Part shown: positions 15,771-19,195 of the stretch, piece by piece | Layout: every line of letters begins with the position of its first letter | Numbering within the stretch: the first letter of the stretch is position 1 | Assembly: GCF_006345805.1 (NCBI RefSeq) | Contig: NC_043004.1 | Location: forward strand, 84,072,001 to 84,136,000 | Source of the DNA: Octopus sinensis | Lineage: Eukaryota | Length of the DNA stretch: 64,000 nucleotides | Direction: 5' to 3' | The notes under the pieces: generated by a model | Told to the model about the DNA's origin: nothing | Seen by the model: only the letters and a program-made list of their open reading frames with translations | Databases searched by the model: none | Made by a program: the position numbers and the translations under genes

Positions 15771-16428
15771 ATGTCAGGTCACTTTTGGTTACTACTGGTA
15801 GCATGTAACCCAGTACAAGCCTGTTGCATGGTCGGGCCGTCGGCGACTAAACGGGCAACCCCACCAAGCTTGCTTGGTGAGAAGGGTGTTTATTGGACAC
15901 CCTGCGGGATGAATAACAAAACCCGTCAAAGGGCGGAGGAACTCTTGAGAGACAAGGCCCATCCAATAAATGTTTTTTTTCTCTCTCTCTTAGACCTCAA
16001 GGCTGTATCATGCGCGGGGACATAGAAATAATAGGACTGAATACCCGATCGAGCGGTTAAACCATTGGCAGTGAAGGAGTCCTAGCCTTTCTTAGGGCAT
16101 CCTTCTAGGAGAAGGTAAGTCAGGTAACTGGAATAACTCCGACATAAAACGTGCGGCTCAGTGGTTACCTATGATATTGACCTATTCTTCTTTATGGCTA
16201 CTGTTGCTTAGTGAGTGGGATTGACTCAGTGTGCAGCCTTTCCTCGCTTAAAAAATTCTTCTTGCACAGGCATTGCACGATAACAATGATTGTTGATAGT
16301 GCTGTGAGTCTCAACTGAATGGTTGGCTGTAGCCTTTAAAAGCAAATAGAAGTCACATTCGATCACAGCACCAATACAGTGAAGCTTCGTGCAATGGCCA
16401 TACTCGATAAAGAGGTGGTAGCCATCAT
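15771..16428 (+). mobile_element. GC-richer segment resembling an RTE-clade LINE 5' UTR
   Basis: gggcatccttctaggagaaggtaa resembles the RTE 5' UTR motif; 5' part resembles the 3' half of an HDV-like ribozyme; bounded by (TA)n. Confidence 0.45.
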
Positions 16429-16453
16429 TATATATATATATATATATATATAT

Positions 16454-16485
<32 letters not shown>

Positions 16486-16493
<8 letters not shown>

Positions 16494-16710
16494 TTAGAGA
16501 TAAAACCACTATTAGGCAAATCATACAATGAAAAAATTAAGCCAATACGTAAGATTACTTAATTTATATTATTGAAATATATAACAAAATCAATAAAGAA
16601 ATATAATTAATATAACACTACGATCGTTTCATGGCTGTTAATTTCTTTAAATTTTCGAGTTACAGTCATTCATCAGGTGGTTTTAATATTTAACTTGGCG
16701 AGGTTTAATC
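16486..16710 (-). mobile_element. PLE-like 3' end (pseudo-LTR fragment) abutting (TA)n
   Basis: Contains a canonical minimal hammerhead; pieces recur in the opposite orientation at 16823-16872 and 17169-17205. Confidence 0.7.
16616..16679 (-). ncRNA. Minimal type I hammerhead ribozyme motif
   Basis: Minus strand: cac-CTGATGA-atgactgt...acagccat-GAAACGATCGTA-gtg; palindromic helix III ACGATCGT. Confidence 0.8.
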
Positions 16711-16869
16711 AATGAACTGTGATCGAATGTGACTTCTATTTGCTTTTAAAGGCCAGACATTCAGTTGAGACTCACAGCACTATCAACAATCATTGTTATC
16801 GTGCAATGCCTGTGCAAGAAGAATTTAAATAATATAAATTAAATAATCTTATGTATTGGCTGAAGTTTT

Positions 16870-17008
16870 TCACTACTTGAATGGACCATAAGCAAAACTT
16901 GACTTAAACAGGATGATTCAAATAATCCTATCAGGTGGTGCTATTAAGTTAAACATGGCCTGGACCAATCATTGGTCGAAACACATCTAAGTTTATCTAA
17001 GTTTATAT

Positions 17009-17075
<67 letters not shown>

Positions 17076-17289
17076 AATATTAGGGAATAAATCCAAACTT
17101 ACAGGGAAAAATCAGATTTAGGATTGAATCCAATTTTATAGTAAAATATTATATTATATTAAATTAGAGATTTGCCTAATAGTGGTTTTATCTCTAATTT
17201 AATATAATATAATATTTTACTATAAAATTGGATTCAATCCTAAATCTGATTTTTCCCTGTAAGTTTGGATTTATTCCCTAATATTTATT

Positions 17290-17335
<46 letters not shown>

Positions 17336-17465
17336 TAGATAAACTTAGATGTGTTTCGACCAATGGTTGGTCCAGGCCATGTTTAACTTAATAGCACCAC
17401 CTGATAGGATTATTTGAATCATCCTGTTTAAGTCAAGTTTTGCTTATGGTCCATTCAAGTAGTGA
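16870..17465. repeat. ~596-bp near-perfect palindrome
   Basis: 16870-17004 = revcomp of 17331-17465 (1 mismatch seen); 17071-17170 = exact revcomp of 17191-17290; TA tracts between; ~18-20 nt central spacer. Confidence 0.95.
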
Positions 17466-18930
17466 GTTTTTGTTGGGTGAGTTGTATCCAATTATGGGTG
17501 GCTTATCTGGTATTCCTTGAAGGAATCTATCCAGACTTCGTTTAAAGTTGATGGGATCCTGTTCCTCTTTGATCTCTTTTGGGACAATGTTAAATAGGGC
17601 AGGGCTTGTTGAAGAAAAGAAATTATGTTGTAGTGTATATGTATACTGTGATCTTGAATTGGGCAGGGGACGTATGGCCCGTGGTCCCAGTCTTGGATGA
17701 ACCTTGAAGCTTATGTTCAGGTCGTTTGGGCAAAGTTGGCGGTATATTTTCCACATCGTACAAATGATGTACCGCTCACGGCGACGCTGGAGAGAGTAGA
17801 GTTTCAAGGCTTTAAGGCGATCCCAATAATCGAGAGCAGCCATGCCTTCAATTCGTTTAGTGAGTGCTCTCTGGGGTGATTGAATCCTCGAGATGTTTTG
17901 TATTGTATGGGGAGACCACAGTGGGCAGCAGTATTCGAGGTGTGGCCGTACAAAGGAGAAGAGTGGTATGATGACACCTTGTTCTCTGGACCGGAAAGTT
18001 CTTAAGATCCAGGAACTCATCCTACGAGCTATATCGACCTTCTTGTTGATGTGTGCTCTCCAACTGAGATCGTCATCAACAATTACACCTAGGTCTCTGA
18101 TGGTGTTAGCGGCTGTGAGCGGTTCCCCCGAAGGAAGAGAGTATGGCTGTTTTAGTGAGTAATTTCTTCCAAAATGCATCAGCTCAAATTTTCCCTCGTT
18201 CAGTTGCATTTTGTTTCTGTCTGCCCATTGACTCACAGCATATAGATCAGACTGGAGTTGAGTTCGGTCTGCTTCTTCATTGACGATTTGCTGGAGCTTG
18301 GTGTCATCAGCAAATATTTTCACTTTGCAGTAATGTACGACACTGGAAAGGTCGTTTATGTAGATTATGAAGAGTAGCAGACCCAAGACAGTCCCCTGGG
18401 GGACACCGCTGGTGACTTTTGCTGGGCTTGATTGGACTCCATCAACTACAACATGTTGTGTTCTATTTTCCAGGAAATACTTGATACAGTGTAGAACTTT
18501 TCCATGGATTCCAAGATTTGTCAATTTTGAGAGTAGGATATTATGGTCTACCCTGTCGAACGCTTTACTGAAGTCAAGATATATGACATCAGAGTTCGAA
18601 CCTGTTCCCAAGGCTTTGAGTACATCTTCAATGTGGTGTAAGAGCTGTGTTAGACAGTCCCTGCCACAGCGAAAGCCATGCTGATTTGCATTTAGCAGTT
18701 TCTGGGTCTCCAGGAAGTCAGCCACCCTTGATCTTAACACTCTTTCAAACACTTTGATGATGTGGGAGGTGTGTGAAATTGGGCGATAGTTGAGTGCGAG
18801 GGATCTGTTTCCGTGTTTGAAAACCGGGATGACTGACTGGGATAGAAACTGTTTCGGTATATAACCTGCATCTAACGAATTTCTCCAGAGGTTGGTCAGA
18901 GGGACTGCAAGTCGGTTCGATTTTACACAT
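17331..18930 (-). mobile_element. 5'-truncated CR1/L2-group LINE with intact 3' end
   Basis: RT ORF; 3' UTR stem-loop gaccaa-cca-ttggtc and (ATCTAAGTTT)2 tail; frame stays open upstream through LAVPLTNLW...NYRPIS. Confidence 0.92.
17433..18752 (-). CDS. Non-LTR retrotransposon reverse transcriptase, C-terminal part of ORF2 (no endonuclease; the annotated start is not the true start)
   Basis: QHGFR, YLDFSKAFDRVDH, SGVPQGTVLG, IFADDTK, RDLGV, VRPHLEY, YSLQRRRER motifs. Confidence 0.93.
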   Translation of the reverse strand: MFERVLRSRVADFLETQKLLNANQHGFRCGRDCLTQLLHHIEDVLKALGTGSNSDVIYLDFSKAFDRVDHNILLSKLTNLGIHGKVLHCIKYFLENRTQHVVVDGVQSSPAKVTSGVPQGTVLGLLLFIIYINDLSSVVHYCKVKIFADDTKLQQIVNEEADRTQLQSDLYAVSQWADRNKMQLNEGKFELMHFGRNYSLKQPYSLPSGEPLTAANTIRDLGVIVDDDLSWRAHINKKVDIARRMSSWILRTFRSREQGVIIPLFSFVRPHLEYCCPLWSPHTIQNISRIQSPQRALTKRIEGMAALDYWDRLKALKLYSLQRRRERYIICTMWKIYRQLCPNDLNISFKVHPRLGPRAIRPLPNSRSQYTYTLQHNFFSSTSPALFNIVPKEIKEEQDPINFKRSLDRFLQGIPDKPPIIGYNSPNKNSLLEWTISKT

Positions 18931-19195
18931 AAGGTATTGGAATGTTACATATATACCATTCTGTCTAAAAAATGGATCTAGAAATTCAGTATCCCTACAT
19001 ATCCCACATCTATTTTCTTTCCTCCACCTCACTCTCTATTTTGCATCCTATCTAAATTAACTATAATTTAACCATCCTCTGACACCATCTCCGATGAAGG
19101 GATATAATTAATGAATATCCTGGAAACACCTGTAAGACATTCTATCTATAAATGCTCTAATATTTACACACCCTTGTTTTTTATATCATTACGTA
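18931..19195 (+). mobile_element. PLE-like 3' end abutting (TA)n
   Basis: Pyrimidine-rich tract, hammerhead-like motif at 19088-19137, then (TA)n. Confidence 0.55.
19088..19137 (+). ncRNA. Hammerhead-like motif, C4 core variant (degenerate)
   Basis: tct-CCGATGA-agggatat...atatcctg-GAAACACCTGTA-aga. Confidence 0.55.

Follow-up and report, generated by a model that had tools for sequence, protein, structure and literature searches.

Inverted copies of both flanks within a two-ended Penelope-like element insertion in Octopus sinensis

The stretch of DNA analysed here (the window; 64,000 nucleotides, NC_043004.1:84,072,001-84,136,000) derives from the 2.72-Gb genome of Octopus sinensis and is without any N. 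Between a high-copy repeat and a LINE it contains a composite insertion made of 3' ends of a Penelope-like element (PLE), runs of a (TA)n target and inverted copies of both flanking sequences. The features are listed below in window coordinates, with element positions numbered from the tail end of the PLE.

15775..16428, + strand: copy of a high-copy repeat that ends at a microsatellite, with 47 differences from the majority over 654 positions
16253-16368, within the repeat 15775..16428: L, the template of the left inverted copy
16429..16489: left part of the (TA)n target
16486..16718, - strand: left arm, a tail-less PLE 3' end (element positions ~87-319)
16614..16682, - strand: hammerhead-like core, recognized by eye (CUGAUGA, long-loop stem II, GAAAC-GAUC-GUA)
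16717..16826, - strand: L', a 110-nt inverted copy of 16253-16368, with overlaps CT and ATTT at its junctions
16823..16872, + strand: middle element piece (positions 179 to 130), which continues the right arm past a 6-nt gap
16870..17003, - strand: R', an inverted copy of the LINE 3' end at 17332-17465, with junction overlap TCA
17004..17069: copied (TA)n run
17070..17171, - strand: inverted tail and first core bases (positions 1-102), with hairpin junction GAT/ATC and an 18-nt loop
17169..17291, + strand: right arm, a tailed PLE 3' end (positions 123 to 1) equal to the family majority
17292..17331: right part of the (TA)n target
17332..18944, - strand: LINE copy, whose 3' 134 nt (R) are the template of R'
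17433-18944: LINE RT ORF (RVT_1, E 1e-28)

Sequence comparison across 16253-17465 located every piece where an earlier note on this DNA had placed it, confirming that the composite structure is real in the assembly and was accurately described. R' is identical to R at 133 of 134 nt, and L and L' display 93% identity. The inverted tail (17070-17171) and the right arm (17169-17291) show no differences from the family majority, with which the middle piece agrees at 49 of 50 nt, while the copied TA run (~67 nt) is longer than its template run (~40 nt). Other copies of the left-flank repeat stop at the same place as the copy at 15775..16428. The left arm, which carries eight changes relative to the family majority, is present from 16486, as described, but ends at 16718 rather than 16710, at a truncation hot spot of the PLE family. 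The junction overlaps ATTT, TCA and GAT that had been reported are all present, and are joined by a fourth, CT (2 nt); the joint chance of the four overlaps (2, 4, 3 and 3 nt) in the local sequence is ~3e-5.

The two right-pointing element pieces were said to be consecutive, and this holds, as the right arm comprises positions 1-123 and the middle piece positions 130-179, such that just 6 nt (ttgtat) are absent. The caveat attached to the middle piece, that it has several mismatches to the left copy, is correct in that there are five, although four of these are private changes of the left arm and the middle piece itself is close to the majority. The right-hand side displays the features of a local fold-back templated insertion: the GAT/ATC hairpin, the TCA join, the 6-nt loss and shared private variants (see below). 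The proposal that a similar event occurred from the other end is not borne out: L' begins ~350 nt back, passing over 60 nt of flank in addition to the arm and the TA run, and there is no resumption on the left side, so the left event does not mirror the right-hand one. Interpreting the inner hairpin as an ordinary short two-armed insertion is a weak explanation: its GAT junction is also present in two ordinary one-tail insertions, but those are without a flank copy, whereas in the window R was copied and a tail is found on both sides.

Similarity alone proves little about the source of L' and R', because both flanks are high-copy repeats. R and R' have in common a C>T change and a 3-nt insertion that none of the 29 close LINE copies fetched contains; the two differ at a single site (17366), where R' keeps the family allele. 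L and L' have in common a 9-nt deletion and three substitutions, absent from 11 of 11 copies fetched (loci obtained from 39 non-self scored matches in each search: 29 and 11, respectively). L has one further change, L' has one substitution and its own 6-nt deletion, and at one site L' keeps the family allele where flank L has changed. Since each copy has private variants in common with its own flank, both inverted pieces come from this locus, which upholds the claim that both flanks were copied in inverted orientation. The same variants rule out R' as an independent short LINE insertion and L' as part of the element, which in its long copies contains no match to L'.

Judged by its sequence, the element derives from the 3' end of a Hydra-type PLE that targets (TA)n. 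A 22-nt motif from this end has at least 4,075 exact matches in the genome. Two-armed copies are mostly head to head, and 69 of 74 pairs carry a tail (~85 nt) on exactly one side; three pairs have no tail and two have both, one of the latter being the hairpin of the window locus (a few tandem-duplicated loci were counted twice, and three further pairs had a truncated arm). A purified Poseidon-clade PLE protein is reported to cut and extend both target strands in vitro, starting at two adjacent RNA sites, which define the tail (PMC11167929). In view of the one-tail rule and this biochemistry, the tail-less left arm and tailed right arm in the window are the normal two-ended product of the family. 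Of 69 ordinary junctions between arms, about 30 show overlaps of 2-7 nt, and short templated fillers are present in several. Many arms end at element positions 309-319, a hot spot that is partly ascertained, as the searches were centred there. The stop lies directly inside TTTAG-TTCATT, a motif on the RNA strand that may mark a transcript start or a splice acceptor. Among 60 arm pairs, 20 rare variants are common to both arms of one insertion, compared with 83 and 109 per side, reflecting either a common donor RNA or arm-to-arm conversion.

The ORF in long copies carrying this 3' end is predicted, from motifs and alignment, to encode an RT followed by a C-terminal GIY-YIG endonuclease. At L236 the PLE end (389-678) accompanies a broken ORF (~5033-2820) that aligns in order with the full-length homologues P0027 and P0010. 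Pfam searches of the ORF fragments returned no RT and no GIY-YIG domain, with only sub-cutoff GIY-YIG matches in 2 of 10 homologues. The linker is of the Hydra type, CxCx5C replacing CX2-5CxxC (CTCRDKTKC in L233, L234 and L236). The endonuclease is without CCHH, having one Cys between VVYKC and IYIGS, while CYLC..E and CRH, corresponding to CxxC and CxH around the conserved E and N, are present; DKT is found in L236, where the RWK position reads KWK in a decayed frame. Together with insertion into (TA)n, a property of the Hydra clade, the linker, the endonuclease motifs and DKT match the clade definition in PMC8557442, the assignment being set by motifs. The Neptune and Naiad clades were rejected, as the CCHH motif and CX2-5CxxC linker (and, for Naiad, an N-terminal endonuclease) were not found. 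As in published endonuclease-bearing (EN+) PLEs and the Hydra clade, the family has head-to-head arms, a one-side tail, a (TA)n target, a hammerhead-like motif and, in long copies, Hydra-type endonuclease motifs, although its tail of ~85 nt contrasts with the 30-40 bp reported (PMC8557442, PMC3846280). The hammerhead core remains putative: its by-eye motifs give a fold z of 0.17, and an Rfam search returned no hammerhead match at 16614-16682. The PLE ORF (L233:2751-3281, L234:6240-7112) has a very high AT content and encodes runs of asparagine both within the endonuclease and ahead of it, which recall the N-rich inserts of rotifer Penelopes (PMC3846280). The 3' region of the long element also includes 65 nt, antisense to the PLE RNA, with 83-91% similarity to the LINE 3' end (R) (L188:1157-1219, L199:1176-1240 and ~25 other long copies); this stretch is a putative old capture, in one or other direction.

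A search for further PLE ends with inverted copies of their own flanks, as the earlier note had recommended, covered ~280 sites with 505 inner (299+136+35+35) and 49 internal outer (30+2+5+12) arm ends, in a sample biased to full-length young arms and chromosomes 1-2. Besides the window, flank copies were found at three sites (L265, L351 and L166), inverted at two and with resumption at one. The last of these, L265 (G000:C1:39647249-39650275; locus positions 1013-2033), repeats the leave-copy-resume layout. Its tail-less arm extends up to position 281 and is followed by one extra base and 255 nt of inverted primer-side flank (99.6%), the sole full match genome-wide being that flank. The element then resumes in the original direction at ~293/295-309 (11-13 nt on), followed by a 7-nt filler and the tailed arm. 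The leaving point is without microhomology and has one untemplated base, while the return shows 0-2 nt. The register holds only for the short form of the subfamily and is probably real, because the sample contains 20 short-form and four long-form copies. A forward-resumption scan of 383 ends identified six within 30 nt of register, namely L265, the window and four repeat interruptions (L029, L095, L016 and L310), which were discounted as other repeats inserted later. Near-register resumption thus recurs, and the window belongs to a small recurring class of PLE integration accidents.

At L351 (1491-2044) a single arm displays a 19-nt snap-back on its own cDNA and a repeated filler; on the end without cDNA the opposite flank is folded back over 135 nt, at a 7-bp hairpin. 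L342 contains a 60-nt copy of its own cDNA end. At L166 (115-215 and 725-825) a direct ~60-100-nt copy of primer-side flank, from ~610 nt back, is joined to the arm 5' end by a 2-nt overlap. Smaller templated matches (L144, 29 nt direct; L188, 33 nt; L192, 20 nt) were left out of the count. In a general scan for inverted pairs across ~0.97 Mb of fetched DNA, 26 of the 28 pairs other than the window were judged by eye to be repeat-family stubs or touching TA runs, the remaining two being L265 and L351; no clear host-only example was seen among the 29. Inverted pairs at L058, L108, L119, L115 and L290 look like other fold-back repeat families, and those at L106, L199 and L383 are long two-armed copies. 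Near many copies there are also further fold-back families, flanked by (TA)n and with both tandem and inverted arms (L108:227-1521, L119:344-1830, L290:2120-2790). Host-repeat palindromes centred on a TA run were observed at L010:2139-2351 (79-nt arms, 100%) and L088:438-1242 (~400-nt arms, 94.6%), both within ~100 nt of family insertions; these are possibly fold-backs at (TA)n cuts that received no insertion.

The two halves of the window structure differ in divergence, with 11 of 457 nt changed in the left half versus 2 of 543 in the right (Fisher p 0.009), and, when only the arms are compared, 8 of 231 versus 1 of 173 (p 0.08). Seven of the eight left-arm changes cluster in 63 nt (16536-16598), each occurring in 0-2 of ~200 arms and being private or nearly private. 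A diverged source for the left arm is unsupported, as no surveyed arm has more than one of its eight changes. Ordinary pairs are also asymmetric (L006, 0 versus 5; L143, 0 versus 4). A clock-like accumulation of changes would make the left half the older part and the right fold-back the younger.

Given the observed anatomy, the local origin of both copies, the one-tail layout and the recurrence of near-register resumption at L265, a timing, an order of steps and a probable enzyme can be proposed. The reading we tentatively favour, with a likelihood slightly short of even, is a single two-ended integration in which the DNA ends snapped back and then rejoined through 2-4 nt of microhomology, with host repair as the probable agent. 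Both target strands would prime cDNA, giving the tail-less left arm and the tailed right arm. The left cDNA end would pair by CT ~350 nt back and copy 110 nt of flank, then anneal by ATTT to the right cDNA, which by then would have reached at least 179 nt, and copy 50 nt of it. The right cDNA would be cut or trimmed at positions 124-129, after which its end would fold on GAT/ATC, copy the tail, the TA run and 134 nt of the LINE (~300 nt), unwind, and anneal by TCA to the waiting left-derived end. The register would need no return to the RNA, because the repaired gap amounts to a 6-nt deletion with an inverted templated insert.

Remodelling of the ends in a single event is consistent with the outer arms carrying exactly one tail, as in 69 of 74 pairs, and with the primer-side origin of all long flank copies on cDNA ends (4 of 4; two from the selected window locus, the others L265 and L166). 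The resumed pieces are short and end-proximal (50 nt in the window, ~15 nt at L265), the 135-nt fold-back at L351 lies on a cDNA-less end, own-cDNA snap-back is seen at L342 and L351, and ordinary arm-arm junctions show 2-7-nt overlaps and templated fillers. Precedents are reported from yeast breaks, R2 junctions, L1 insertions and human inverted duplications. Several observations fit less well. The enzyme is not readable from the sequence; the near-blunt junctions and untemplated base of L265 suit an RT jump or ligation better; the greater divergence of the left half is not explained by one episode alone; and the step at which the right cDNA is shortened requires an unobserved cut. Moreover, copies of 255-300 nt are longer than the ~30 nt quoted for Pol theta and than the maximum of 150 bp in yeast (PMC11724301), and only one unselected case of resumption was found.

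The earlier note had proposed that the RT left the RNA, copied its own product and primer-side DNA, and returned to almost the same RNA position. Much of that account stands: a PLE end is involved, the two cDNAs were primed from either side of a single (TA)n site, both inverted pieces have a local origin, and the resumption is near register, which recurs at L265. The RT excursion with a return to the RNA does not follow, as fold-back repair gives the same product; the register comes free, because fold-back at a broken end and joining leave a small deletion and an inverted copy, as reported in yeast (PMC11724301). We regard it as unlikely, though a serious competitor, that the PLE RT copied 250-300 nt of primer-side DNA, including its own cDNA, and re-engaged the same RNA 6-13 nt on, the RNA staying anchored by an RNA:cDNA hybrid. 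In its favour, both loci resume just past the leaving point with a forward skip (6 nt; 11-13 nt at L265), the polarity is as predicted, and at L265 the template of the excursion is not part of the cDNA, which would allow the RNA to remain anchored, and the junctions have 0-2 nt of homology and an untemplated base. In the window, however, copying back through its own cDNA would presumably strip ~100 of the 123 nt of RNA anchor; a fold-back of similar size is present at L351 on an end without cDNA; papers on L1 and R2 assign such synthesis, as proposals, to DNA polymerases or end remodelling; and no such product is described in the consulted parts of the in vitro PLE study (PMC11167929). Sequence cannot decide between end remodelling and a return of the RT, with L351 and L265 leaning in opposite directions, the latter towards the RT.

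The right-hand fold-back might instead be a later accident, in which an ordinary insertion with L' at its centre broke in the right arm and was repaired by fold-back. The register would then be automatic, the right palindrome has one difference in 236 nt versus three events in 113 nt for L and L' (p 0.10), and (TA)n-centred host palindromes exist near family copies (L010, L088). We consider this sequence of events improbable: it needs two independent rare events (each at ~1 in 100-300 sites) at one locus, the breaks at both loci lie near arm ends and the copies are primer-side, and no clear host-only inverted pair was seen by eye in ~0.97 Mb. Furthermore, the right arm and middle piece are near the majority (1 of 173 nt) and therefore not old. 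A chance register is very improbable. Here the top strand would undergo two serial snap-backs, onto L and then onto its own cDNA (16578-16529), before joining the folded-back bottom strand at a chance TCA. The middle piece does show complementarity to the left cDNA, L342 and L351 provide examples of own-cDNA snap-back, landing within 10 nt has a roughly estimated chance of ~10-20%, and the locus was picked for its unusual look. The near-register layout is, however, repeated at L265, and the middle piece is without all four overlapped left-arm changes, which would therefore all have to be later.

Least probable of all is that chimeric long reads with fold-backs produced an assembly artefact. 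The fetched loci do include several perfect palindromes, and no read support was obtained: 19 indexed runs contain part of 16490-17003, the best fraction being 0.35, with none reaching half. For four of the runs (X1, X6, X2 and X15), none of the pieces listed within 16490-17003 exceeds 71 nt or spans a junction. Across the flank at 15790-16425 none of the pieces listed for X1, X2, X15 and X16 exceeds 68 nt, and depth is zero at 16142-16185 in X1 and X16. As these runs seem to be without even the flank haplotype, the read results weigh neither for nor against the structure. Arguing against an artefact are the four microhomology junctions in a gap-free window of a 107-Mb sequence, retention in the copies of family alleles that the flanks have lost (R' at 17366 and L' at one site), the 6-nt deletion private to L', and recurrence of the layout at L265.

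Published systems provide partial parallels to the window. Fold-back inverted duplications of target-side DNA, 52-220 bp long, are reported at 4 of ~1,200 somatic L1 insertions (~0.3%) and tentatively assigned to DNA polymerases (PMC10191854), while a preprint attributes them to self-annealing of resected ends with 2-bp homology (10.1101/2024.12.14.628481; earlier version PMC11702581). The octopus structure resembles these in its inverted duplication of target-side DNA, but in the L1 examples consulted the duplications are on the reciprocal end, whereas here it is the ends bearing cDNA that fold back, and they do so on both sides, with resumption of the element. In R2, before the junction is closed, the 3' end of the cDNA primes synthesis on that same cDNA and, in fewer cases, on target DNA close by; this often follows full-length synthesis, as it does at the left arm here. 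Those cases are single-ended insertions in cultured human cells, and the parts of the source consulted describe no resumption (PMC11371274). At yeast breaks an end folds on a nearby inverted microhomology, extends, unwinds and is captured with 0-5 nt of homology, a route that gives the right-hand layout seen here. The yeast events use a 10-bp priming repeat, yield inserts mostly <34 bp (up to ~150) and involve no retroelement, compared with 3-bp priming and ~300 nt here (PMC11724301). For inverted duplications in humans that do not involve mobile elements, the median length is 284 bp (PMC12350158). Inverted host-flank copies and resumption are not described in the consulted parts of accounts of EN+ PLEs (PMC8557442, PMC3846280), and no report of PLE flank inversion with template switching, or of RT resumption after flank copying, was found in a literature search that covered few subscription papers. 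What is new, within an already known kind of event, is its two-sided form and a resumption that has been seen twice.

These fossils bear on how PLEs finish integration and form inverted ends. They suggest that both cDNA-bearing ends are free, that single-stranded primer-side DNA is reachable over several hundred bases, and that joining uses short homology. About 1% of family insertions duplicate neighbouring DNA, which is roughly the published L1 rate. If the RT does return to its RNA, palindromes and captured flanking DNA would arise within the body of the PLE itself; this might also account for the 65 LINE-end-like nt that are fixed in the 3' region of the long element. The leave-copy-resume layout is a specific product to seek in the in vitro PLE assay, where it would separate the RT from host repair.
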